Shown here: piece by piece, positions 4,450 through 31,210 of the stretch
Numbering within the stretch: the stretch's first letter is position 1
Layout: each line of letters opens with the position of its first letter
Made by a program: the position numbers and the translations under genes
Notes under the pieces: generated by a model
What the model was told of the DNA's origin: nothing
The model's database searches: none
Seen by the model: only the letters and a program-made list of their open reading frames with translations
NCBI GenBank assembly: GCA_022646745.1
Contig: CP060262.1
Location: 210,001-242,000, forward strand
Direction of reading: 5' to 3'
From: Planctomycetales bacterium
Lineage (GTDB): Bacteria; 4484-113; JAFGCY01
DNA length: 32,000 nucleotides

Positions 4450-7400
4450 CTAGGTAGTCGGGCCGAAGCAGAACAGGATGCCATCCCTGTTTCCAGCGTA
4501 GAGCTTGCCGTCCCCGCCGATCGTTGCCCGGTTGTAGAAGTCAGTGCCGACGCCCGCAGACCAGCCAAGTGATCCGTTGGGGTTCACGGCAAACACTGTT
4601 CCCGATTCATCCAGGGTGTAGATCACTCCATTGTTTCCGATTGAAGGCGTGGCATACAGACCTGACAATGGATATGACCACTGGAATACACCGGAGGAGT
4701 TGAGCGCATCCATGCCGCCCATGTGGCATATGTAGACCGCACCATCAGCTGCAGTTGCGATGGAGCCCACCCCGGCAAACGGCACGATGTAGGACCATGC
4801 GAATACACCGGATTCGTCCACTGCCACAACGACGCCGGTAGTGCGGACCAGCACGTTTCCACTGCTGTCCAGTGTCACAGTACTGCTGATTGAGCCACCT
4901 GTCAGGAATTCCCAGATGAAACCACCGTTTGAATCCAGCTTGTAGATCTTGCCATCGTTGCTGCCGATGTATACATTGCCATCCTGGTCGATTGCCGGTG
5001 CGCCTTCAATGTTGCCGGCGGTTGTGTATGACCAGTTGAGTGTGCCATCGGGATTAAAGGAATAGAGCGTGTCATCGTAGCCACCGAAGTAGATCCTGCC
5101 ATCCTCTCCAACGGTGGCGGGCGCCGTGATCGGAGCACCGCTGTTGTAGAACCAGCGCAGCGTGCCATCGGGGTTGATCGCACGGAACTTGCCGTCATTG
5201 CTGCCGAAGTAGATCGCGCCGTCATGGCCGATCACAGGCGTGGAATTGATGTCGTCAGCGGTCTGGACAAACCACTGCTGCTGGCCGATGGAATTGAATG
5301 CGTACAGCCTGTTGTCCTTGTTGCCAATGTATATCGTGCCATCCGCTGCGATCACCGCTGCGGTCAGGTACCAGTCAGTGGCGTCACTGTTGGTCCAGGC
5401 AACACTGCCACTGGACGGGCCATCGACAGTGCACTGTGCGCTGTTGCGGGTGTCATAACCGAAGGAGAACCAGGGGCCGGGCTTGATCCAGGCTTCGGCC
5501 AGCACCGTATCCTGGGCACCGCTGTCATCCGTCACACGCAGTCTGGCTGTGTACTTGCCAACCTTGGCATAGGTGTGGACCAGGCTGGAGGAACCATAGC
5601 CGTCGTAGACACCGTCATTCTCGAAATCCCATTCGTAGTTGACGATGCTGCCGTCAGGATCGAGGCTGCCTGAACCGTCCAGGCTGACAGAGAATGGCTC
5701 ACCGGCCACTTCAGCGACAGTCAGGCCGGCTACCGGTGACAGGTTGCCGGGAACCGTGACAGTGATCTCCTCGGTGGTCGTGGCCCGTGCGCCGTCGTTG
5801 TCCTCCACCCGCAGTCGCATCGTGAATACGCCCGGCTCAGTGTAGGTATGGCTGGCATTCGTGGACTCACCGACCGCGTCGTACAGGCCGTCACCGTCCC
5901 AGTCCCAGGCGAATTCGACGATGCTGCCGTCAGGGTCCTGGCTGCCGAAGGCGGAGAAGCCGACCGTCAGTGGCAGGTCACCGCTGGACTGGTCCACCTG
6001 CAGCGTCGCGGTCGGCGGCTGGTTGCCCACCCCAGCTTCGGTGACGACGATCGCAACCGTGTCCACGTCCCATGCTCCCAGGTTGTCACTTACGCGCAGC
6101 TTGGCATTGAAAACTCCGGCAGTACCGTATTCATTCATCTTCAGCAGGCTGGCAGGCTGGGCATCACCCATCGAGTCGAAGATCCCGTCGCCGTCGAAAT
6201 CCCAGGCCGCGCCTGCAAGTGTGCCGTCGAAGTCCGTGCTCTGTGATCCGTCCAGGTTGACAGTCAGCGGAGCCACTCCGGTGGAGGGGCTGGCCAGCAG
6301 GCTGGCAACCGGACGGCTGTTGCCGCCGATCACGAGACTGACTGCTCCGAGTGAGAAAGCCACACCTTCACTGTCCCAGCCACGCACCCGCGGGCGGATG
6401 ATGCCGAGGCGTGTGCTGTCAACATTGGCCACGCCGCTGGTATTGCCGGCGATGTCAAAGCTGCCGTCACCATCGATGTCGAAGTCATAGCTGGCAGCAC
6501 CGCTGGCAGTCAGGCTGATGTCGTCAAGCAGCAGGCCGCTCGGCTTGCTCAGCTCCAGTCCCAGCAGCGGGGGGCTGCCGGCCTGCGGGACCGCGCTGGC
6601 GATTTCACTCAACGCTGATTCATTTCCTGACGTGTCCACGGCTGAAATTCTGAAGAAGCTTTCCTTGGAGGCGGGCATCTGCAGCTGGTTGAAGCCCTCT
6701 AGGCTGTCCAGCCTGCTGACGCCGGCGGCACTGCCACTCGTGAATGCGGATGCTGAAATGTAGATCCGGTAGCCGGCCAGGTCCGTAGCATCCACTGCAA
6801 CCCAGTCCAGAGAAACTCCGCCAGTCAATGCCTCCGCTGCCAGTCCCTGCGGAACAGGCGGAGCGGTTGTATCAAGTGAGTCATGTGGGTTGGAGCTGAG
6901 ACCGACCACGTCACATGAGGACTCCCCGCCCACAAGCACGCAGGCGAAGATGTTCCCGAAGGGACTGGCGAAGGGTCCGGAGCCTGCCAGAGACAGGCGC
7001 ACATGGTTGTCAGTGAAGGGGCCATGCCATTCCCAGCGGCCGCTGCCGTAATCAGCGATGCCAACAAAGTAGCCCTTGCCTGACAGCAGGTTAGCATCGA
7101 CAGCCAGCACACCCGGCCCTTCGCTGCCACTGGACAGCCGGTAGATCGCCCAGGCCACTGCACCGGATGGGGCAGCCAGCCGACTGGCCTCGCCGTTGTC
7201 AGCGCTGCCAGCGGAACCTGAGAAGCGCTCCACGCCGGGGGTGAAGTCGCTGAACAAGTTGATGCCACTTGAGCCGCGGGCAGGCGGAATCACATGCCCA
7301 TTCTCATCAAGTTGCTCCCAGGGTTGAACGCCGTCAAGCGGGAGCGTGGACGGCCATTCCGCGGCGGGGTCCTGCTTGCCTGCAGTCAGGGCGATATCAG

Positions 7401-7524
7401 CCTGTTGCTGTGGAACACTTGCGCTGCTGCCTCCACAGGAGGAGAACATGCTGCTGAATGCGAGAGCCAGCATCAGCATCACAGGGCGCAGGGGGCCGCC
7501 GGACAGGTGGCAATATGACCGCAT
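4450..7524 (-). CDS. Large modular surface lipoprotein: N-module, FN3, about four PKD repeats, C-terminal PQQ-like (BamB-type) beta-propeller
   Basis: The track ORF is 4450..7536. I prefer ATG 7524 (GGAG 6 nt upstream), giving MRSYCHLSGGPLRPVMLMLALAFSSMFSSCGG (lipobox SSC). Motifs: ADYGSGRWEWHGPFTDNHVRLS; FN3 (LDWVAV..GYRIY..SAVDTSGNES); PKD (WDFDGDG, WDWDGDG, YEWDFENDG). The C-terminus has DG.IY.G..D..LYA.N..G...W repeats typical of PQQ-like propellers. Confidence 0.85.
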   Translation of the reverse strand: MRSYCHLSGGPLRPVMLMLALAFSSMFSSCGGSSASVPQQQADIALTAGKQDPAAEWPSTLPLDGVQPWEQLDENGHVIPPARGSSGINLFSDFTPGVERFSGSAGSADNGEASRLAAPSGAVAWAIYRLSSGSEGPGVLAVDANLLSGKGYFVGIADYGSGRWEWHGPFTDNHVRLSLAGSGPFASPFGNIFACVLVGGESSCDVVGLSSNPHDSLDTTAPPVPQGLAAEALTGGVSLDWVAVDATDLAGYRIYISASAFTSGSAAGVSRLDSLEGFNQLQMPASKESFFRISAVDTSGNESALSEIASAVPQAGSPPLLGLELSKPSGLLLDDISLTASGAASYDFDIDGDGSFDIAGNTSGVANVDSTRLGIIRPRVRGWDSEGVAFSLGAVSLVIGGNSRPVASLLASPSTGVAPLTVNLDGSQSTDFDGTLAGAAWDFDGDGIFDSMGDAQPASLLKMNEYGTAGVFNAKLRVSDNLGAWDVDTVAIVVTEAGVGNQPPTATLQVDQSSGDLPLTVGFSAFGSQDPDGSIVEFAWDWDGDGLYDAVGESTNASHTYTEPGVFTMRLRVEDNDGARATTTEEITVTVPGNLSPVAGLTVAEVAGEPFSVSLDGSGSLDPDGSIVNYEWDFENDGVYDGYGSSSLVHTYAKVGKYTARLRVTDDSGAQDTVLAEAWIKPGPWFSFGYDTRNSAQCTVDGPSSGSVAWTNSDATDWYLTAAVIAADGTIYIGNKDNRLYAFNSIGQQQWFVQTADDINSTPVIGHDGAIYFGSNDGKFRAINPDGTLRWFYNSGAPITAPATVGEDGRIYFGGYDDTLYSFNPDGTLNWSYTTAGNIEGAPAIDQDGNVYIGSNDGKIYKLDSNGGFIWEFLTGGSISSTVTLDSSGNVLVRTTGVVVAVDESGVFAWSYIVPFAGVGSIATAADGAVYICHMGGMDALNSSGVFQWSYPLSGLYATPSIGNNGVIYTLDESGTVFAVNPNGSLGWSAGVGTDFYNRATIGGDGKLYAGNRDGILFCFGPTT

Positions 7525-7547
7525 GGCAGTCTCCATTGAGTGACTTC

Positions 7548-17947: not shown

Positions 17948-20545
17948 ATGAGCGGTAAATATCTGCTGTTGTATGGCCTGCTGGCTGTGATTGTTATCTG
18001 CAGTGTCTCCTGCGTTGGCAGCGAGCCAGTGCAGAACGGCGCGCATTACGCATCCGCCTTTGCCGTCAACACTCTGCCAGACAGCATCTACGCAAACCAG
18101 GTACAGCCATTCAGCTTTTCCGTCAGTGAGCAGGATAAGCTGGCAGTGCTCAGCATCACAAACCTGCCTGAGGCTGGCCTCAAGGCTGCCTACCTGCAGA
18201 TCGAGTACGACGCCGGCAAGTGGACTCCTATGGACAGCACGACCCTACAGACCGGACCGGACGGTCGCCCCTGGCTCGGGCTTGTGATGCCGGATGGCGA
18301 TGGCGCACTGCAGGCCGGCATCGTTGCCAGCGGGCTTGAAGTGTATGGTGGACTGGAGCAATCAGTTGAACTGCTGCAGCTGACGTTTGCACGAGTAAGC
18401 GGCGACGCTCCCCTGCCGGACAGGATTGCCAGCGCAGCACCGGTCAATCCCGGTTCACAGAGCACACTTTCCGTAGACCAGGCAGCCGGCAAGCTCAACT
18501 GGGAATACCGCTGCAGTGGCGACTATGACCAGAACGGGCTTGTCAGCATCAGCGACCTGACCCCGCTCGGTGTGCATTTCGGCAAGGGCGGCCCCTTCAG
18601 TGACAACAGCATCGAAAGCGTGGTGGACGGCGATGGCAACGGGGAAATCAACCTCGGGGACATCACGCCGATCGGGCAGAACTTTGGCCGCGGCGTGGAA
18701 GGCTACAACATCTACCTCAGTGCGGTTGCATCCGATGCGCCGGCATCTGCTGCCGAAGCCAGCAAGATCGCAGCCGCCGGCAGCTACAACTTTGGCAGCG
18801 CTGTCGGCAGCTCAGCCACACAGCGCCTGCAGTTCTCACGCACGAGCGTGATCACCGCAGGCATGTTCTACTGGATCCGCCCGCTGCATGCAGGGGCGGA
18901 GGGCATTGCCAGCAATGTCGTGCAGGCCGGCGGTGCTTCCACCAATGCCCCACAGGCTGACCTGCTGGCCAATCCGGCCAGTGGCCAGGCGCCGCTGCTC
19001 GTCACGCTCGATGCAGCCGGCAGTACGGATCTGGATGGCGACATTGACCACTATGACTGGGACTTCGAGGACGATGGCATATTCGATGACAGCGGCATAG
19101 CGAGCTCTGTGCAGCACAGCTTCGCCACCGGCAACTGGACGGTGCGCGTGCGCGTGGTTGACAGCGGTGGCCTGAGCGACACCGCCACCGCCACAGTCAG
19201 TGCACTGGACAGCCTGCCGCAGCCACCGGTGGCAGCACTCAGCGCTGATCCCAGCACAGGAGTAGCGCCGCTGCTGGTCAGCCTGGATGCCTCCGCCAGC
19301 ACGGACCCGAATGCCGACATTGACCACTATGACTGGGACTTTGAAAGTGACGGCACCTACGACGTGACGACCGGCATCCCGCAGGTCAGCCGCACCTACG
19401 GCGGAGGCCCATGGACCACGACGGTGCGCGTCGTTGACAGCGGTGGCCTCAGTGATACGGCGAGCGTGACCCTGAGCTATACACAGGCCAACTGGAACAT
19501 CCGGGTGGCCGATGCCAACGCACCGGCGGGCGTTGACACCTCTTTGGTGTATGTCGGCGGCCGGCCGGTGATCGCCTATGACAAGTTCAGCTTCAGCCCG
19601 GTGTATGACAGGCTGTACGTGGTGCGCGGCACCGACACGCAGGGCTCGAGCTGGACGGCTCCGACGCGGCTTGACACCCAGCTTGAGCTGGTGCGTGCAT
19701 TCGACATGGATGTGGTAGACGGCCAGGCGGCGGTCTGTTACTACGACCAGGACAACGGCCGACTGCGCTACATCCGCAGCACGAGCCCTGATGCAAGCAC
19801 ATGGGGCTCTCCGTTGACACTTGAAACGGATGACAGTGCTTCCAGCACCTATGGCAAGGACTGCTCACTGGAAGTGATTGACGGCTTGCCGAACATCGCA
19901 TTCCGCGGGGACAACAGCCTGCGGATCTACATCAAGAAGGCCCAGAATGCCATCGGTACATCCTGGGGTGTGCGCGCCCTGGTCAGTTCCGGACTGACCG
20001 GCGTCGGCGGAATCACCCTGCATGATGCCGGCGGCAGCCCGGGGATCATCTGGACCTCGATCGTCCAGCAGAAGGTTGGCTATTTCCACGCCTCCAACCT
20101 GAGCGGCCAGTTCTTCAACAGTGACCTGTACAGTGGCAATCCGCAGCTGAGCCAGGACTTCGTCTTCCTGAATGGCAAGCCGCTGGCCGGCTTCGTGACC
20201 GGCACTCCCACTTTTGACGTGAGGGTCGCAGTCGCGGATGATGAAGATGGCAGCATGTGGCAGGCCTCCCAGGTACTGGGACAGGCCAGCCAGAACGGCT
20301 GCTCGATGGCTGTGGTGAATGGCATCCCGATGCTGGTGGCAACCAACTCCGGCAGCACTCTCCTCGAAATCTATCGTGCACTGGATCCACAGGGCAGCAG
20401 CTGGAGTGATGCAGAAGTAATTGATGGTGGTACGGGTGAGCTGCTTTCGGCACCCTGCCTGATCGAAATCAGCGGTGCCCCGGCGGTGAGTTACGCCTGG
20501 GGGGATGACCCGGATTATGAAGTCCGCTTCGCAATCTACTTCTGA
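17948..20545 (+). CDS. Large modular surface lipoprotein: cohesin-like N-domain (tentative), dockerin-like double EF-hand, two PKD repeats, C-terminal propeller-like repeats
   Basis: Lipobox VSC (LLAVIVICSVSCVG). Dockerin-like pair: DYDQNGLVSISDLTPLGVHFG and DGDGNGEINLGDITPIGQNFG. Two PKD units carry DIDHYDWDFE.DG and VRVVDSGGLSDTA. The C-terminal repeats (VVDGQAAVCYYDQDNGRLRYIRS..STWGSP) are like those at the C-terminus of 1..2365. SD GGAGGAG upstream. Confidence 0.85.
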   Translation: MSGKYLLLYGLLAVIVICSVSCVGSEPVQNGAHYASAFAVNTLPDSIYANQVQPFSFSVSEQDKLAVLSITNLPEAGLKAAYLQIEYDAGKWTPMDSTTLQTGPDGRPWLGLVMPDGDGALQAGIVASGLEVYGGLEQSVELLQLTFARVSGDAPLPDRIASAAPVNPGSQSTLSVDQAAGKLNWEYRCSGDYDQNGLVSISDLTPLGVHFGKGGPFSDNSIESVVDGDGNGEINLGDITPIGQNFGRGVEGYNIYLSAVASDAPASAAEASKIAAAGSYNFGSAVGSSATQRLQFSRTSVITAGMFYWIRPLHAGAEGIASNVVQAGGASTNAPQADLLANPASGQAPLLVTLDAAGSTDLDGDIDHYDWDFEDDGIFDDSGIASSVQHSFATGNWTVRVRVVDSGGLSDTATATVSALDSLPQPPVAALSADPSTGVAPLLVSLDASASTDPNADIDHYDWDFESDGTYDVTTGIPQVSRTYGGGPWTTTVRVVDSGGLSDTASVTLSYTQANWNIRVADANAPAGVDTSLVYVGGRPVIAYDKFSFSPVYDRLYVVRGTDTQGSSWTAPTRLDTQLELVRAFDMDVVDGQAAVCYYDQDNGRLRYIRSTSPDASTWGSPLTLETDDSASSTYGKDCSLEVIDGLPNIAFRGDNSLRIYIKKAQNAIGTSWGVRALVSSGLTGVGGITLHDAGGSPGIIWTSIVQQKVGYFHASNLSGQFFNSDLYSGNPQLSQDFVFLNGKPLAGFVTGTPTFDVRVAVADDEDGSMWQASQVLGQASQNGCSMAVVNGIPMLVATNSGSTLLEIYRALDPQGSSWSDAEVIDGGTGELLSAPCLIEISGAPAVSYAWGDDPDYEVRFAIYF
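18949..19476 (+). repeat. Tandem duplication of a PKD-domain coding unit (two copies of about 260 bp)
   Basis: The copies share the identical run gacattgaccactatgactgggactt. They also share the near-identical gtgcgcgt.gttgacagcggtggcct.ag.ga.ac.gc. Confidence 0.7.
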
Positions 20546-21507: not shown

Positions 21508-21537
21508 AAAGCGCCTTCGGGTTCAAGGGGGATTAAC

Positions 21538-21610
21538 CACGCCCGACAGGATTCGAACCTGTGACCCTCTGCTTAGAAGGCAGATGCTCTATCCCCTGAG
21601 CTACGGGCGC
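21538..21610 (-). tRNA. tRNA-Arg, anticodon UCU
   Basis: The reverse complement folds as a 73-nt cloverleaf: GCGCCCG TA GCTC AGGGGATA GAGC A TCTGC CTTCTAA GCAGA GGGTC ACAGG TTCGAAT CCTGT CGGGCGT G. All stems pair (G1-U72 is a wobble). GG is in the D-loop and the T-loop is TTCGAAT. CCA is not encoded. Confidence 0.9.
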
Positions 21611-21635
21611 GCAACGGTCGGGGAAACCGCTGAGG

Positions 21636-24205: not shown

Positions 24206-24352
24206 TGAAATCTCCGCCGATCCAAGAACATTCCGGTGATTCAGGCGTCTTATTGATAATTCGCAATCATTTAAATGCAGCGCTTAAACAGGCAAATGCT
24301 GGATGATTGCGGGTAGTATCAGGAGGTCTGCCGCAGGGCAGCCCGGACCAGG

Positions 24353-25243
24353 ATGGACACCATGAGAATTGCCGGCATGTTGATAATCGGATTGCTGTTC
24401 CTCGGCGGTGTGATGTATTCCGCTTCCGCCATGAACCGCATGTATGACGCCCAGGGCGGCGGCATTGCGTTTCGCAGTTCTCCCAAGTCAAGCGACGTGC
24501 TGACCATCGGTTACGACACACCACAGGACTTCAAGGCCGCACAGATGACAGAAATTCCCGTAAAGCCCCCGATTGACAGCCAGCTTCCACAGAACCTGGA
24601 AGTGGCCAGCTTCGCGCTTGGTTGATTCTGGGGTCCGGACTCCCGGTTCGGGAGCATCAAGGGTGTCTACCGCACGGTCGTCGGCTACAGCGGCGGCGAC
24701 AAGCTTAACCCGACCTACCACGACCTCGGCGACCACACCGAGTCCTTCGAGGTCTGGTACAACCCGGAAGAGCTGAGCTATGCGCAGCTGCTGGCCTATG
24801 TCTGGGACAGCCATGACCCCAGCTACAGCACCAGCTATGTGCAGTACCGCAATGTGATCTGGGTACACAATGAAGAGCAGCGCAGGGTCTCCGATACGCA
24901 AAAGGCTGCGATCGAAAAGGAAAGCGGCAAGCCGGTGGCAACGCTGATCCTCGACGCCAAGACCTTCTACCCCGCCGAGGACTACCACCAGAAGTACGCC
25001 CTGCGCCACAACCAGGCGCTGATGCAGCTGTTCGACCGCTGGTACCCCAAGGGCAGCGACTTCCGCGAGAGCTTCACTGCAATGCGCTTCAATGCCTACC
25101 TGCAGGGCCATGGCAGTGCGACGCTGCTGCTCAACGAACTGGATGGCTACGGCCTGCCGGATGAACTGAAGGACATGATGCGTGCCCAGGCGCCGAAGCT
25201 GAGCGAGGATGCCGGCATGCAGTGCGCCATCCCGGGAGCGTAG
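24353..25243 (+). CDS. msrA: Peptide methionine (S)-sulfoxide reductase MsrA with an in-frame TGA (candidate selenocysteine) at the catalytic position, an N-terminal signal peptide and a C-terminal extension
   Basis: 24353 and 24839 are in the same frame. Hand translation across the gap gives EVASFALG-TGA-FWGPDSRFGSIKGVYRTVVGYSGGDKLNPTYHDLGDHTESFEVWYNP...YPAEDYHQKY with no other stop. TGA is at 24623-24625. An alternative start is ATG 24362. Confidence 0.75.
24640..24654 (+). promoter_or_regulatory. Candidate bacterial SECIS apical hairpin
   Basis: CUCCC-GGUUC-GGGAG begins 15 nt after the UGA (5 bp, or 6 bp with a 3-nt loop). G and U lie in the apical loop. I could not draw a convincing extended lower stem by eye. 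Confidence 0.45.
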
Positions 25244-25279
25244 GAAGGCGGATTGCCTGAACAGCTGTGCTGCACGACT

Positions 25280-25285
25280 TATAAT
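25280..25285 (+). promoter_or_regulatory. Perfect -10 box TATAAT 6 nt upstream of GTG 25292 (leaderless candidate)
   Basis: TATAAT-ccggct-GTG. Starting at this GTG yields a clean lipoprotein signal peptide. Confidence 0.35.
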
Positions 25286-25291
25286 CCGGCT

Positions 25292-26902
25292 GTGCGCCTG
25301 ACCCCTACCGGTCTAATCCTGCTGGCTTTGGCAATGCTATGCCTTTGCAGCTGTCCGCAGCAGCAGCAGGCTGGCCAGACTGCCACGGACCAAGGCTCAT
25401 CTGCTGCAGATGGCAAGGACAAGGGTGCAGTGGCACTCGACATGCAGCGCCGTTCCCCCGAACTTGAGCTGCCTTTCGAACTCCCTGATGTGCCTGCGCC
25501 CGACCCGGCAACTGAGCTGGCAACGCTGGCCGTGCTTGGCAACTTCCGCGGATTCCAGAAACCCTGTTCCTGCACACCGGAGCAGGATGGCGGACTGGCC
25601 CGGATGGGCAGTGTGCTGCACCGGGTGGACGAGGAAGGCCTGGCGCTGTCCGCGCAGGCGGCAATCCCCGATGATGCAAACCTGCCGGAGTATGACGTTG
25701 CCATTCCCGGCGAGGCTATTCCCCAGCCCCTGTGGCTGGTCGACCTTGGCAATTTCTCCTGGACGCAGCTGCACTTTCCCGGCCTGCGCAGCCGCACGCA
25801 CCTGCAGATCCTCTCGGCGATTGGAGCACGGGCCGCGATTCCCGGTGCCAGTGAGCTGAGCCTTGGCCTCAGTGACGCCGTGGCGGCCTTTGCCGACAGC
25901 CCGCTGCCGCTGGTGAGTTGCAATCTGGTTGTGGATCAGTCGGACATTGAGATCCTGCCCAGCCTGCAACTCGCTGACAACTGGTACCTCGTCGGGGTGA
26001 GCAGTTCAGAGGACGGACAGGGGATGCATGCCAGAGCTGACTGGTGGCAGCTTGCTGACTCAGCCAGCTCGTTGACAAACACACTGGCGAGCCTGCCAGC
26101 GGACTGCCACATCATCGTGGCCGGGGCCAACCTCGATCCCGCGCTTGCCGAAACGGCGCTGGCTGACCCGCGGGTCAACTGCTGCATCGGCGTGCCCTTC
26201 AACCGGCACAGGCAGAATGCGGACGAGCCGCGCATGTACCGCGACCCGCTGCCCAAGGCCACGGTAATGGACATGTACAGCCTGGACGCCCCTGGCAATG
26301 ACGTGACTGACTGGACGATCCGGCTCGATGAGCAGTATCCGGATGACCCGCGTGTGATGGAGTTGATCAAGCACGAAGGCAAGCTCTCACGTGACAAGCT
26401 GCGCGAACAGCGCATGGCACGTGCGGCTGCTGCCGGCGGGACTGACAAGCCGGAATTCGGCATGTCAGACAAGTTCCTACCGCAGAAGGAACATGCTTTC
26501 AGCTACGAGGATGAGCGCAGTTACGTCGGCGGTGAAAGCTGCCTGCACTGCCACCGTGATGCGGCCGACAGCTGGCGCGGCACCAAACACGCCCAGGCTT
26601 TTCATTCGCTGGAAAGCGAGGGACAGGCGGATGTGCTGGACTGCCTGGCATGCCATACGACGGGACTGCTGCTCAGCGGCGGGTATGACCCGTTGGAGCC
26701 GGGTCCGGCAATGGCGGCGGTCGGTTGCGAAAGCTGCCACGGGCCAGGGTCGCACCATGTGCATGCGATGCAGGACCAGCTGGGCAAGCCCGAGGGATTA
26801 CTGATCGACAGGATGCCGGTGAATGGCTGTGTGCAATGCCATGACCCCTACAACAGCCCGAACTTCAGCTTCGACGAATACTGGGAGCGGATCCGTCACT
26901 GA
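25292..26902 (+). CDS. Tetraheme c-type cytochrome lipoprotein with a large N-terminal domain of uncertain function
   Basis: Four CXXCH motifs in the last 120 aa or so: CLHCH, CLACH, CESCH, CVQCH. Context: SCLHCHRDAADSWRGTKHAQAF (cytochrome c554-like multiheme style). Lipobox LCSC. The track start is TTG 25253; GTG 25292 is preferred. Confidence 0.8.
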   Translation: MRLTPTGLILLALAMLCLCSCPQQQQAGQTATDQGSSAADGKDKGAVALDMQRRSPELELPFELPDVPAPDPATELATLAVLGNFRGFQKPCSCTPEQDGGLARMGSVLHRVDEEGLALSAQAAIPDDANLPEYDVAIPGEAIPQPLWLVDLGNFSWTQLHFPGLRSRTHLQILSAIGARAAIPGASELSLGLSDAVAAFADSPLPLVSCNLVVDQSDIEILPSLQLADNWYLVGVSSSEDGQGMHARADWWQLADSASSLTNTLASLPADCHIIVAGANLDPALAETALADPRVNCCIGVPFNRHRQNADEPRMYRDPLPKATVMDMYSLDAPGNDVTDWTIRLDEQYPDDPRVMELIKHEGKLSRDKLREQRMARAAAAGGTDKPEFGMSDKFLPQKEHAFSYEDERSYVGGESCLHCHRDAADSWRGTKHAQAFHSLESEGQADVLDCLACHTTGLLLSGGYDPLEPGPAMAAVGCESCHGPGSHHVHAMQDQLGKPEGLLIDRMPVNGCVQCHDPYNSPNFSFDEYWERIRH

Positions 26903-27646: not shown

Positions 27647-30600
27647 ATGCTTATGCGCTTGAGGGCCTGCCTTGCCGCACTCTTCATCCTGCTCGTGACT
27701 TCCATGCTTGCCGCCTGTGGCGGCGGTAGTGGATCCGCTGAACTTGACGGCACGAACCTGCCGCCCGCGGTCCAGCAGGAAGTTCCAAGCCTGCCCCAGA
27801 GCCAGCTTCCGGTATTTCCGGATGAGCTGGTGGAGCGTGAGCATCCCGCCGGTGTATCCGCCACGGAGAACGTACAGACGGGCAGCCAGGCATGGATGAT
27901 GCAGTCACCCGGTTCCTCCTTCAATGGGACGGCGCTGGAGCTGGACGGCAATGCCGGCCCGACTTCACTGTGGGGCATGTGGCGCTGGACCAACTTCCAG
28001 GGTGGCCTGCCGATCCGCGTGCTGCTGGACTTCGACATTGATGCGGGTGGCGAGTTCTACGTGCTGCTGAGCGACTATGGCACCGGCCGCTGGAAGCTGA
28101 TCGGCCCGCTGCCGGAGACCTTCGCAAATGACAGCCGCACTTCCTACCCGGTCGGCGACTTCGTCAGCCCCGGAGACAGTACCTATGTCGGCGTGCTGAC
28201 AACAGCTGGCACGAGCATGACGATCAACACGGTCACGCTGCTGGCTGATGACGACCTGACTCCACCGAATGCACCTGAGAACCTCGTAGCCAGCGATGAG
28301 CAGCCCGGTTCCGTGATGCTTGACTGGGACGACCTGACTGACCCGACGCTGGACGGATACAACGTCTACTACAGCCCAAACGGACCCTTCGAGCTTGGTG
28401 ATGTCGGTGTGCAGCAGATGAACCTGTTCCCCGTCAGCATCAGTGAGTACCTCGCGAACGGCCTGGTGCCGAACACGACATACAACTTCGGCGTGACCTC
28501 GGTGGACATGGTTGGCAACGAAAGCGGCCTGAGCAACATCGTGGAGGCCACCACCACCGATGACACCCCGCCGGGCATGCCGACCGGGCTGACCATCGAC
28601 AGCATCGGCAGCACGACCGTCAACCTGAGCTGGACCGCCCCGGCCGACCTGGACATCCAGGGTTACAACATCTACATCGGCAACACCCTCGACTTCGACC
28701 TGGCGGACGGCGAGAAGCAGGACGGAGCACTGTACCCCGGCACCAGCGGGGTACGCGACGGACTGACCCCGGACCAGGAGTACTTCGCCCGGGTGACTGC
28801 GGTTGATGTGTTCAACCAGGAGAGTGTGCCCAGCGGCAGCGTGAACTTCACCACCGTGACGGATGCCCCTCCGGTGCCGGACTTCATCGTCAGCCCTGGT
28901 TATGTCGAGGTGGGCGAGATCGCATTCTTCAACCCAAGCCCGACCTTTGACCCGGACACCGACTCATCCGAGCTGACCTTTGAGTGGGATTTTGACAACG
29001 ATGATGTGATTGACGAGAGTTCAACGGGCCCTGTGAACGTCAACTGGACCTTCAACACCGTTGGGCCGACCCCGGTCAGCCTGACCGTCAGTGATGCCCT
29101 GTCCTCCGTCGAGCTCAACGTGATGCTGATGGTGCACCGTTCCTACGAACGCTTCAACTTCGGCAACGGTGCCGGAAACGCCGGCAGCGTCCTCGGGCTG
29201 GCGACTTGCCCCGAGAACAGCCTGGTTGGCATTCCCTTTCGCGATGACAACAATGACATCAAGCTGCGTTACTACAACGGCAGTACCTGGAGCGTGATCA
29301 CGATGCCTGCTCAGGGCTTCACGGACTTCGCGGTCTCCCCGCAGGGCCCGGCCGCCCTTTACATCGATGTCACCGCCAATTCGGTGACGTGGAGCGTCCA
29401 GCGTTACAATGGGAGCTGGAACACGATCCGCTCCCAGACCATCTCAGGCCTGTCCGAACCATCCACGGCAACTTCCCAGCTTGCCATCGGTAACAACGGG
29501 CGGATCTCCGTCGGCGTCGTGTATTTCAACAAACCCGGATTCGGCGACCCGGTCTACCAGTACCACGTCTGGCATGAGAAAGCGGATTCCAGCCTGCTCG
29601 ACATCAATGTCTTCGGAGGCACACGCCCCTCGGCGCAGTTCACCGCAACCGACCTGACCCGCACGGATGACACGAGCTACCTGCTTGACAACGTCTCCGG
29701 GAGCGTCAATCTGAACCTAATCACAATCACTGACAGCGGCAGTACGACCAGCTCCGGAATCCAGACCATCAACGGCGTGCCCTCCCGGATGTACATCGAT
29801 ACCGACCCTGACAGTCCGAACCAGGTCTTCTGGGGCATGCTGAACAGCACCAACCGCATCTACTACGGTGACAACTATGGCACCGCCAATGGCGGAAGCC
29901 AGTTCGTCAATGCGGGCTCCGCTGCGGAGGAGCTGGCAGCCATCGGATTTGCCGGTGACAACGAGGCCGAGGTCTTCTGGCTGGATGAATACACCACCGG
30001 TGACCAGGAACTGCGTGGCTACACCACCATCGCGGATTCCGTCTTTTCGGTGGGGAGTGGAATCGGCTTTGCCGACAACGCATTCGGCGGATACCACGAC
30101 ACCGGCAGCGGCAGTGGTGTATGGATCGTGGTACGCGAAAGCCGCGATGGTCAGGTGGTGGCCCGCTACATCGAGAGTGAATCCGTTGCCGACAGCCTCG
30201 TCGTGCACAACCCGGTCAGCGCCAGCACGATCTTCACCAAGTCCGCCCCGGTCGTGTTCCCTGATGACAGCATCTCCAGCTCGCACCTGCAGGGCTACCC
30301 GACGGCGCTTGTGGGCAACATCGCGGCGGACCATGCCAGCTCCACCACGCAGTTCGTCGGCAGTGATGCCTATGTGCTGACCAACTTCTCCTGCCTGACT
30401 GGCAACCTGAATGAGTACATGCTCGGCGGCATCGACACAAACGGCGTGATGGTGCTGAACCTGCTGGTGAAGGGACTGACCGGTGCGACCCAGTCCCTCG
30501 TCGTGGAAGGCGTCGGCATGGCCACGATGGAATATAACCCGAACAGCTCGACGATCATGCTGCTCTATACCACCGGTGGCAGCACCACGCTGAACTACAG

Positions 30601-31210
30601 GACATACAACGCTGGCTCCTGGACTGCCCCGTCGGTGCTCATCGGCGCCGGGCCGGAGATCAAGCGGATGGACAGCGCCCTGCGTGCTGACGGGGACTTC
30701 GGCGTGATCGTTGCCAACGCCAGCGATAAGCTGCTGATGCTTGAGACGAGCTCCGGCTCCTGGCAGCCCTCAGTGGAGATCTATGACGGTGCGCTGACTG
30801 TCATCACCTCGTTCATCGGCATGGACTATGACTCCACCAACGAGGCAGCGGTGGTTGTCAACCGTGAACCCGGCGGGATCTGGCTGGGCACCATCCCGGA
30901 TGGCGGCAGTGTCAGCTGGGAGGAGGTCGATCCCCTGCTCAGCGCCAATGCCTACAGCCTCAACGTGGCGCATGACAGCTCTGACAACCCGGTGCTGGTC
31001 TACCTGCGCAGCAATACTTCCTTTGCAGATTCGGATCTGTACATCACGGAGAAGCTCGGCGGCAGCTGGGTGCCGGACCAGGCGCCTTCCGTCGTCAAGC
31101 TGCTGGGCATCCCGCTCGGCCTGACTCAGGACAGCGCTCGCAACATCATCATCGGTGGCGCAGACAAGGGTGCCACCCCCAAGGCGATCTGTGTCATCTA
31201 CTATGACTGA
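27647..31210 (+). CDS. Large modular surface lipoprotein: N-module, two FN3 domains, one PKD domain, long C-terminal propeller-like region
   Basis: Lipobox LAAC (LVTSMLAACGGGSG). N-module: LWGMWRWTNF..EFYVLLSDYGTGRWKLIGPL. FN3 x2: MLDWDD..GYNVYYS..VTSVDMVGNES and LSWTAP..GYNIYIG..VTAVDVFNQES. PKD: FEWDFDNDDVID. Confidence 0.85.
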   Translation: MLMRLRACLAALFILLVTSMLAACGGGSGSAELDGTNLPPAVQQEVPSLPQSQLPVFPDELVEREHPAGVSATENVQTGSQAWMMQSPGSSFNGTALELDGNAGPTSLWGMWRWTNFQGGLPIRVLLDFDIDAGGEFYVLLSDYGTGRWKLIGPLPETFANDSRTSYPVGDFVSPGDSTYVGVLTTAGTSMTINTVTLLADDDLTPPNAPENLVASDEQPGSVMLDWDDLTDPTLDGYNVYYSPNGPFELGDVGVQQMNLFPVSISEYLANGLVPNTTYNFGVTSVDMVGNESGLSNIVEATTTDDTPPGMPTGLTIDSIGSTTVNLSWTAPADLDIQGYNIYIGNTLDFDLADGEKQDGALYPGTSGVRDGLTPDQEYFARVTAVDVFNQESVPSGSVNFTTVTDAPPVPDFIVSPGYVEVGEIAFFNPSPTFDPDTDSSELTFEWDFDNDDVIDESSTGPVNVNWTFNTVGPTPVSLTVSDALSSVELNVMLMVHRSYERFNFGNGAGNAGSVLGLATCPENSLVGIPFRDDNNDIKLRYYNGSTWSVITMPAQGFTDFAVSPQGPAALYIDVTANSVTWSVQRYNGSWNTIRSQTISGLSEPSTATSQLAIGNNGRISVGVVYFNKPGFGDPVYQYHVWHEKADSSLLDINVFGGTRPSAQFTATDLTRTDDTSYLLDNVSGSVNLNLITITDSGSTTSSGIQTINGVPSRMYIDTDPDSPNQVFWGMLNSTNRIYYGDNYGTANGGSQFVNAGSAAEELAAIGFAGDNEAEVFWLDEYTTGDQELRGYTTIADSVFSVGSGIGFADNAFGGYHDTGSGSGVWIVVRESRDGQVVARYIESESVADSLVVHNPVSASTIFTKSAPVVFPDDSISSSHLQGYPTALVGNIAADHASSTTQFVGSDAYVLTNFSCLTGNLNEYMLGGIDTNGVMVLNLLVKGLTGATQSLVVEGVGMATMEYNPNSSTIMLLYTTGGSTTLNYRTYNAGSWTAPSVLIGAGPEIKRMDSALRADGDFGVIVANASDKLLMLETSSGSWQPSVEIYDGALTVITSFIGMDYDSTNEAAVVVNREPGGIWLGTIPDGGSVSWEEVDPLLSANAYSLNVAHDSSDNPVLVYLRSNTSFADSDLYITEKLGGSWVPDQAPSVVKLLGIPLGLTQDSARNIIIGGADKGATPKAICVIYYD

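Follow-up and report, generated by a model that had tools for sequence, protein, structure and literature searches.

The gene considered here lies on the forward strand, at positions 24353-25243 of a 32,000-nucleotide stretch of DNA from a Planctomycetales bacterium (GenBank assembly GCA_022646745.1, contig CP060262.1, positions 210,001 to 242,000; this whole stretch is called the window below). On the grounds of sequence comparison, it very probably encodes a functional selenocysteine (Sec)-containing peptide methionine-(S)-sulfoxide reductase (MsrA) of the same two-domain type as the Clostridium oremlandii enzyme. MsrA is listed among the prokaryotic selenoprotein families with experimental verification, its motif being GUFWG (PMC13188914), and the window gene is a genuine, mis-annotated member of this known and structurally characterised family. 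In the proposed mechanism, the in-frame UGA at 24623-24625 would be decoded as Sec, a hairpin at 24640-24654 would bring SelB, loaded with Sec-tRNA(Sec), to the ribosome, and Sec91 would be the nucleophile that attacks methionine sulfoxide, turning into a selenenic acid.

Translation of the window shows that 24353-25243 is a single frame of 296 codons with one internal stop. The open reading frames (ORFs) 24353..24625 and 24839..25243 share this frame, and the sole interruption is the TGA at 24623-24625, in the context EVASFALG-TGA-FWGPDSRFGS; the terminal stop is TAG at 25241-25243. A sequence-only reading of this DNA had proposed that the two ORFs form one msrA gene interrupted by a lone TGA, and both the translation and the common frame bear this out; the VGYSGG, His/Glu (DLGDHTE) and AEDYHQKY segments named there each occur in the joined translation. 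That reading had also placed the start of the gene at 24353. However, ATG 24362 appears the likelier start, because the orthologs described below begin at the equivalent second ATG, with MRI... or MRV... corresponding to the MRIAG... of the window; AGGA at 24350-24353 sits 8 nt 5′ of it. The full msrA coding sequence read through UGA is thus assigned to 24362..25243 on the forward strand, and an identical copy of it exists in a second assembly. The predicted product measures 293 aa from ATG 24362 and 296 aa from ATG 24353.

For the family searches, U was replaced by C in the translation. Pfam PMSR (PF01625) matches residues 85-222 with 127.5 bits against a cut-off of 23.7 (6.7e-37), and the NCBIfam model TIGR00401 (msrA) reaches 113.1 bits against a cut-off of 108.1; the PMSR catalytic domain (residues 85-222), supported by both models, covers 24605..25018 on the forward strand. 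Among PDB entries, 4lwj, 4u66 and 7c13 match best, with E of about 1e-44 over residues 80-274 in the HMMER alignment, and 4w8c is also among the matches; 4lwj and 4w8c are the natively Sec-containing MsrA of C. oremlandii, referred to as CoMsrA (PMC4333827, PMC4479559). It had been claimed that the stop falls on the catalytic Cys, and this is what the PMSR match and the structure alignment indicate, since the TGA column aligns with catalytic Cys16 of GCFWG in the solved C. oremlandii enzyme. The codon at 24623..24625 (forward strand, residue 91) is accordingly taken as a UGA Sec codon at the nucleophile position of G-U-FWG, in agreement with the TGA found in four orthologs and 141 further homologous loci. 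The active-site residues listed for CoMsrA (PMC4333827), namely Y47, E55, Q89, Y90, H137 and Y140, correspond to Y122, E130, Q164, Y165, H212 and Y215 of the window protein, all of them conserved.

The similarity to CoMsrA continues past the catalytic domain. The 4lwj alignment extends through chain residues 145-199 of the 209-residue native enzyme, by which a C-terminal helical domain of the CoMsrA type is placed at 25019..25192 (forward strand); Pfam PF20939 (‘Selenoprotein MsrA, helical domain’) gives a weak match there, with 13.7 bits against a cut-off of 23.7. In CoMsrA, the helical domain is essential for activity (PMC4333827). The C-terminal extension of about 90 aa noted earlier is therefore novel only in part: some 55-60 of its residues are this known helical domain according to the 4lwj alignment, and about 20 residues, including Cys291, are additional.

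Conservation of the interrupted gene was followed at two levels. A second metagenome assembly of the locus (L087) contains the identical 891-bp gene, TGA included. Beyond this, four orthologs (L001, L004, L005 and L006), with 58-76% amino-acid identity to the window protein, each consist of an upstream in-frame ORF, a TGA at the identical column and the remainder of MsrA. Synonymous divergence among the orthologs is about 0.5-0.8, and the frame is unbroken on both sides of the TGA; the ratio of nonsynonymous to synonymous differences (pN/pS) lies at 0.52-0.65 ahead of the TGA and at 0.37-0.50 beyond it. Besides the TGA and the frame, the orthologs also retain the N-terminal segment and the Cys of the C-terminal tail. 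With regard to the genetic code, 6 of the 14 Pfam-supported genes of the window (including 17948..20545 and 25253..26902) end in TGA, and msrA is the only one in which this codon occurs in-frame; for this reason the genetic code of the organism is standard, and the earlier statement that TGA has not been globally reassigned holds.

The second line of evidence is the hairpin that follows the UGA. This bacterial selenocysteine insertion sequence (SECIS)-type element occupies 24640..24654 on the forward strand, with a 5′ arm CUCCCG (24640-24645), a GUU loop (24646-24648) and a 3′ arm CGGGAG (24649-24654). It lies 15-29 nt past the UGA, its loop begins 19-20 nt past the UGA, its stem comprises 6 bp and its energy is -9.2 kcal/mol. 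The published model of bacterial SECIS elements (bSECIS; PMC13188914) specifies a loop of 3-9 nt, a stem of 4-16 bp, a G within the first two nucleotides of the loop (typically N1-G-[G|U]-N-N2), a spacing of 16-37 nt between UGA and loop, and an energy of at most -7.5 kcal/mol. The window hairpin agrees with all four published constraints (PMC13188914), its G-GUU-C loop fitting N1-G-[G|U]-N-N2.

Much stronger support comes from comparison of homologs, for which two sets were assembled: the best 80 homologous loci in a collection with one genome per GTDB species (L007-L086, genome set) and the best 80 matches in metagenomes (L091-L170, metagenome set). Covariation was analysed over 73 distinct TGA sequences aligned without gaps, for the six pairs from columns 27:41 to 32:36. 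In these TGA-type homologs, 89.5% of the hairpin cells are paired, and 51 cells, at three pairs, carry compensatory changes: pair 27:41 occurs as C:G, A:U, U:A and G:C, pair 28:40 as U:A and G:C, and pair 32:36 as G:C and A:U. The covariation score was attained by none of 500 shuffles, and every measure drops when the 3′ partner is displaced by at least one column. Genes of the Cys type (n = 11) have 28.8% of the cells paired, no better than shuffles, and encode similar peptides (PDSRFG, PDAQFG) from different codons. In the genome set, a local hairpin of -7.5 kcal/mol or below is present in 69/73 TGA genes versus 2/11 Cys genes; in the independent metagenome set, the figures are 68/73 versus 0/5. 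The exact hairpin core of the window, CTCCCGGTTCGGGAG, is the commonest variant in the metagenome set (29/73), and the stem reaches 8 bp in about half of the homologs. Within the window clade, synonymous differences (pS) amount to 0-0.29 in the 11 codons past the UGA versus about 0.5 elsewhere, and L001 and L005 share a compensatory change from G:C to A:U. Thus, the SECIS-like hairpin named in the sequence-only reading is located as described and covaries in TGA genes only, and from the comparative sequence pattern it is considered a bona fide SECIS-type element. Being short, very uniform and clearly covarying, it is well suited to the training or testing of SECIS predictors.

Two Cys-type (TGT) loci, one of them L085 10013-10072 from Halorubrum cibi (GCCCAGUUCGGUGC), also have a hairpin of -7.5 kcal/mol or below at the SECIS position; these could be relics of Sec-to-Cys conversion, or due to chance.

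The same two sets give the distribution of Sec and Cys forms. At the catalytic column, 68 TGA and 11 TGY codons (Y for pyrimidine, i.e. Cys) are found among the 79 classifiable loci of the genome set, and 73 TGA and 5 TGY among 78 loci of the metagenome set, frequencies that are biased upward for TGA because both samples consist of the best 80 matches to a Sec-type query. The column is thus a Sec/Cys pair, with TGY in 11 genome and 5 metagenome homologs. Orthologs with TGA or Cys at this position, to which the sequence-only reading had looked for confirmation, do exist: TGA in the four orthologs, TGA or TGY in the wider homologs. The carriers belong to the Planctomycetota, Chloroflexota, Desulfobacterota, Bacillota, Acidobacteriota, Nitrospirota, Actinomycetota and Synergistota, and include the cultured Desulforamulus aeronauticus and Desulfosarcina alkanivorans. 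No relative closer than 50% identity was found among the matches listed in scans of both collections with the generic EDYHQKY pattern. TGA forms dominate among the nearest relatives; the assumption that Sec-containing MsrA is rare does not apply to this subfamily, in which it is common in uncultured anaerobes.

Public annotation has largely hidden these genes. As had been anticipated, gene callers split the window gene: the NCBI annotation is a fragment of 195 aa, and other callers give 87 + 134 aa. The downstream starts vary with the caller (195, 179 or 134 aa) and also among orthologs. The annotated fragment, which by cluster membership corresponds to accessions UNM10023.1 and MCB1221424.1, is found in at least 3 NCBI metagenome-assembled genomes and in over 15 contigs from ENA or Logan. 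Each of the six nearest database proteins is truncated, and five of them (P0001-P0005) start shortly past the catalytic column. Another entry, P0008 (L171 995-1711; GCA_013332755.1, JAAUYF010038963.1), has Trp at the catalytic column in the database (FALGWFWG). This Trp is spurious, since under table 11 the codon in its DNA is an in-frame stop, which the source translated as Trp, and P0008 is another Sec-type gene masked by annotation. In other words, protein databases systematically conceal the family, its Sec forms appearing as truncated fragments or with a spurious Trp; in the present case, a GenBank fragment of 195 aa without the catalytic residue stands for a real product that would be a selenoenzyme of about 293 aa. 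As a side observation, the C-terminal half of P0006 (from an 833-bp ENA contig) is identical to the window protein and its N-terminal half resembles another MsrA lineage; it is probably a chimeric assembly.

Other explanations of the in-frame TGA have to be weighed against this background. That the gene is a pseudogene, or that the TGA is an assembly or sequencing error from a TGC or TGT Cys codon, would agree with the fragments listed in public annotation and with the absence of Sec machinery from the window and flank. However, the second assembly is identical, the fragment occurs on many contigs, and the TGA is kept in four orthologs that differ at roughly half of synonymous sites, as well as in 141 further homologs; because diverged orthologs retain the TGA within an intact frame and show purifying selection before and after this codon, both variants can be excluded for practical purposes. 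An equally implausible explanation is reassignment of TGA (code 4 or 25), which would make residue 91 Trp or Gly. The single database entry with W at this column speaks for it only until its DNA is read, where the codon proves to be a stop under table 11, misread by the source. The role of TGA as terminator of 6 of the 14 Pfam-supported window genes, and its absence in-frame from the others, is opposed to any reassignment, and by the established mechanism (PMC4479559) a Trp or Gly nucleophile would inactivate MsrA.

The split produced by gene callers is exactly what would be expected from two separate products, a small membrane peptide of 87-90 aa terminated by the TGA and an MsrA-like protein that starts downstream and is shortened at its N-terminus. 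This is very unlikely, as the PMSR domain and the structure alignment run across the TGA, with the first strand and GxFWG contributing residues on both sides, a protein begun after the TGA would be without its nucleophile, and the downstream starts are called inconsistently among callers (195, 179 and 134 aa) and orthologs. Slightly greater weight, within what is still an improbable range, is given to low-level read-through of UGA by a near-cognate tRNA (Cys or Trp) without Sec machinery, the hairpin merely slowing termination, for which the shortness of the hairpin (6 bp) could be invoked. Against it, the spacing, loop G-U and energy of the hairpin are those of the SelB-type SECIS consensus, and this element goes with TGA in many phyla, also in the cultured Desulforamulus and Desulfosarcina. 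Moreover, the closest characterised homolog is a proven selenoprotein that is 20-fold more active than its Cys form (PMC4479559), and retention of an inefficient stop is hard to explain without Sec when TGY is one base away.

Besides the sampling bias mentioned above, several observations count against decoding of the UGA as Sec with the help of this hairpin. Folding of the single window sequence past the UGA is not distinctive in DNA of 61% GC (z = 0.25 and 0.66), and the ensemble probability of the hairpin in the window sequence is only 0.22-0.39. An Rfam search of 24560-24760 at E = 10 returned no matching family, and part of the nucleotide conservation of the hairpin is due to the conserved peptide D-S-R-F-G-S. 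RNAalifold on the 73 TGA sequences yielded a weak alternative structure without covariation; the hairpin at 24640-24654 is preferred over it because pair counts, slide controls and the Cys-type control support the hairpin. Finally, no selA, selB, selD or tRNA-Sec gene is present in the 32-kb window and about 10 kb beyond its right end, out of a genome of 4.11 Mb. If the UGA is decoded as Sec, the organism should have the selABCD machinery, and the use of selenocysteine is implied for this Planctomycetales-labelled lineage.

Upstream of the catalytic domain, the window protein has an N-terminal addition of about 75 residues, made of MR, a hydrophobic segment of about 20 residues, NRMY, a linker and PPID. 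The hydrophobic segment (IAGMLIIGLLFLGGVMYSASA), a putative signal anchor or signal peptide followed by the NRMY motif, is located at 24368..24430 (forward strand). Its mean Kyte–Doolittle hydropathy is 2.07, and 2.37 in L001 and L004; no gaps are needed to align the segment with its counterparts in the orthologs, and the four that extend as far as NRMY all retain this motif. The linker (24431..24589, forward strand) evolves fast (pN 0.43-0.57), with the frame intact in all orthologs, an invariant Gln64-Met65 and a conserved PPID at its end. Of the cleavable signal peptide suggested earlier, the hydrophobic segment is conserved, but the cleavage site (ASA/M) is not, since the A-S-A site of the window is absent from L001 and L004; the window segment is also without a lipobox.

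Strongly hydrophobic N-terminal segments are widespread in the Sec-type family: 52/73 Sec-type genes of the genome set have one (16 of the 52 with a strict lipobox) versus 1/11 Cys-type genes, and in the metagenome set the proportion is 47/66 Sec-type genes with a complete 5′ end. These segments are frame-specific, being found in the msrA frame in 98/133 genes versus 1-2/133 in the other forward frames, and 86 of the 98 have a start codon and a Lys or Arg ahead of the segment. Among Sec-type genes, the export signals take the form of a lipobox, a cleavable-type signal peptide or a single transmembrane anchor. The N-terminal segment would place the long form of the window protein in or across the cytoplasmic membrane. 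By analogy with the lipobox-bearing homologs, the catalytic domain is somewhat more likely to be extracytoplasmic than cytoplasmic; it must be set against this that Arg is found on both flanks of the hydrophobic segment in the window clade, so that the positive-inside rule favours neither orientation.

Another conserved feature lies within the linker. A candidate internal ribosome-binding site (AAGG, 24533-24536) sits 8 nt ahead of an in-frame ATG (24545-24547, Met65), which is itself 26 codons ahead of Sec (24533..24547 as a whole, forward strand); conservation in orthologs and in the family points to its possible use as a start. The Met65 ATG is invariant in five orthologs, each with a purine-rich motif upstream. 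In a census of 133 Sec-type genes with a long upstream open frame, an in-frame ATG is found 30-34 codons ahead of Sec in 77 (about 58%) versus a background of about 3% per position; the window clade shows ATG enrichment at -26, with the same relative position in L001, L004 and L005. Shine–Dalgarno (SD)-like motifs precede 73% of these ATGs versus 24% of other codons in the same range, the purine run lying 5-16 nt upstream of the internal ATG with a maximal purine content at 9-12 nt. Family members without a signal begin at the position of the internal ATG, downstream of the export signal, and the ATG is retained in 68/98 genes with hydrophobic N-termini. Taken together, the sequence pattern suggests that an internal start has been retained in these genes; Met65 could also be conserved for a reason other than initiation.

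At the other end of the protein, the C-terminal tail (25193..25240, forward strand) contains its only Cys, Cys291 (TGC, 25223-25225), within the motif C-[AM]-[IV]-P-G-A. This candidate resolving residue is invariant in five orthologs, and its neighbouring residues vary. In the wider family, a lone Cys 188-206 residues past Sec occurs in 23/73 Sec-type genes of the genome set and 21/73 of the metagenome set, often as C-P-x-P (G-C-P-L-P); examples are L011, L029, L038, L048, L061, L074, L095, L102 and L105. The tail Cys, found in about 30% of Sec-type genes, marks out a subtype with Sec plus Cys, unlike the C. oremlandii enzyme, which is free of Cys. In a 2-Cys-type cycle such as that of mammalian MsrB1, the selenenic acid would be resolved by Cys291 into a Se-S bond, which a thiol-disulfide oxidoreductase would then reduce. 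This role is proposed because of the general MsrA mechanism and of MsrB1 (PMC4479559, PMC6316033), and by this analogy the chances that Cys291 acts in this way are about even. No candidate reductant gene is located next to msrA, which tells against such a cycle. In a nearest-neighbour census of about 68 genomes, no recurrent thioredoxin, CcdA or DsbD neighbour was found, and MsrB adjoins msrA in 6 of them.

A broader scheme, rather doubtful as a whole and drawn from sequence patterns, would link these features. CoMsrA-type Sec-MsrA genes would encode two isoforms, an exported long form and a cytoplasmic short form made from the internal SD and ATG; in the tail-Cys subset, a Se-S bond between Sec91 and Cys291 would let a thiol-disulfide oxidoreductase recycle the exported form, and methionine sulfoxide repair by an envelope selenoenzyme would be widespread in anaerobes. 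If confirmed, the combination of export signals and retained internal start would point to a selenium-dependent system by which anaerobes repair oxidised methionine in their cell envelope. No mention of exported Sec-MsrA, of the tail Cys or of the conserved internal start was found in the selenoproteome reviews consulted.

Some further features of the window and of the model searches are given for completeness. The NCBIfam model NF041383 (‘VPGUxxT family thioredoxin-like (seleno)protein, type 2’) matches residues 76-180 (24578-24892) in part, with 32.5 bits against a cut-off of 275, which suggests that this model includes an MsrA-like region; this in turn would be a hint that MsrA and thioredoxin-like selenoproteins occur as natural fusions. 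A scan of the window for single in-frame TGAs provided no convincing candidate for a second selenoprotein, spurious frames in GC-rich DNA swamping the scan. The only RNA gene of the window at the Rfam gathering threshold is a tRNA-Arg(TCT) (21537-21611, reverse strand). Downstream of msrA, a gene of the multihaem cytochrome c554 family (25253-26902, forward strand) begins some 10-50 nt past the msrA stop, and its product has a hydrophobic N-terminus that contains Cys; this neighbour is syntenic in L001 and L087 and not in L005. Also downstream of the locus are two adjacent paralogous genes of about 1187 aa for fn3/PKD-domain proteins (window 27647-31210; L087 8561-12127), and large PKD and beta-propeller proteins are also encoded at 4450-7536 and 17948-20545.

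Comparison with known systems concerns the recoding element, the catalytic cycle, the cellular location and the enzyme itself. As in the bSECISearch model (PMC13188914) and the SECIS of E. coli fdhF, the element is a stem-loop in the coding sequence just past the UGA, with an apical loop of 3-5 nt carrying G then U; unlike them, it is very short, and a bulged U or a long lower stem is not evident. For the resolution of a catalytic Sec or Cys by a second Cys, precedents are mammalian MsrB1 (selenoprotein R) and the 2-Cys/3-Cys MsrAs of M. tuberculosis, E. coli and bovine origin. In the E. coli and bovine MsrAs, the resolving Cys is in a flexible terminal region and acts before reduction by thioredoxin (PMC6316033, PMC4479559). 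However, MsrB1 has a different fold and its SECIS is in the 3′ untranslated region, unlike the window gene, and the tail of the window subfamily (C-x-x-PGA; C-P-x-P in relatives) is not homologous to that of E. coli or bovine MsrA. If the catalytic domain of the window protein is extracytoplasmic, its function would be comparable with that of Neisseria PilB MsrA/B, Streptococcus MsrAB2 with CcdA/Etrx, and E. coli MsrPQ. The Streptococcus system, MsrAB2 with CcdA/Etrx, ensures envelope methionine sulfoxide repair. The same holds for MsrPQ and PilB (PMC6316033). The window msrA differs from these envelope systems in that there is neither a fused thioredoxin domain nor a molybdoenzyme, and the nucleophile would be Sec, not Cys.

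The closest parallel is CoMsrA of Clostridium (Alkaliphilus) oremlandii OhILAs (PDB 4LWJ, 4LWM and 4W8C), with which the window protein shares the PMSR domain, the Sec position at GUFWG and, judging by the 4lwj alignment, the C-terminal helical domain. The Cys version of CoMsrA (Cys16) was used for crystal structures (PMC4333827). The native enzyme has 209 aa, starts 15 residues ahead of Sec, contains no Cys (1-Cys type) and is regenerated by glutaredoxin, not by thioredoxin (PMC4479559). The window protein falls outside this 1-Cys type (PMC4479559), its Cys291 being present and invariant in five orthologs. CoMsrA is without signal or anchor and is Cys-free, whereas the window protein has about 75 extra N-terminal residues and a tail of about 20 residues with the invariant Cys291. 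The anchor or signal and the tail Cys thus set the window copy apart from CoMsrA, and both features recur across the family.

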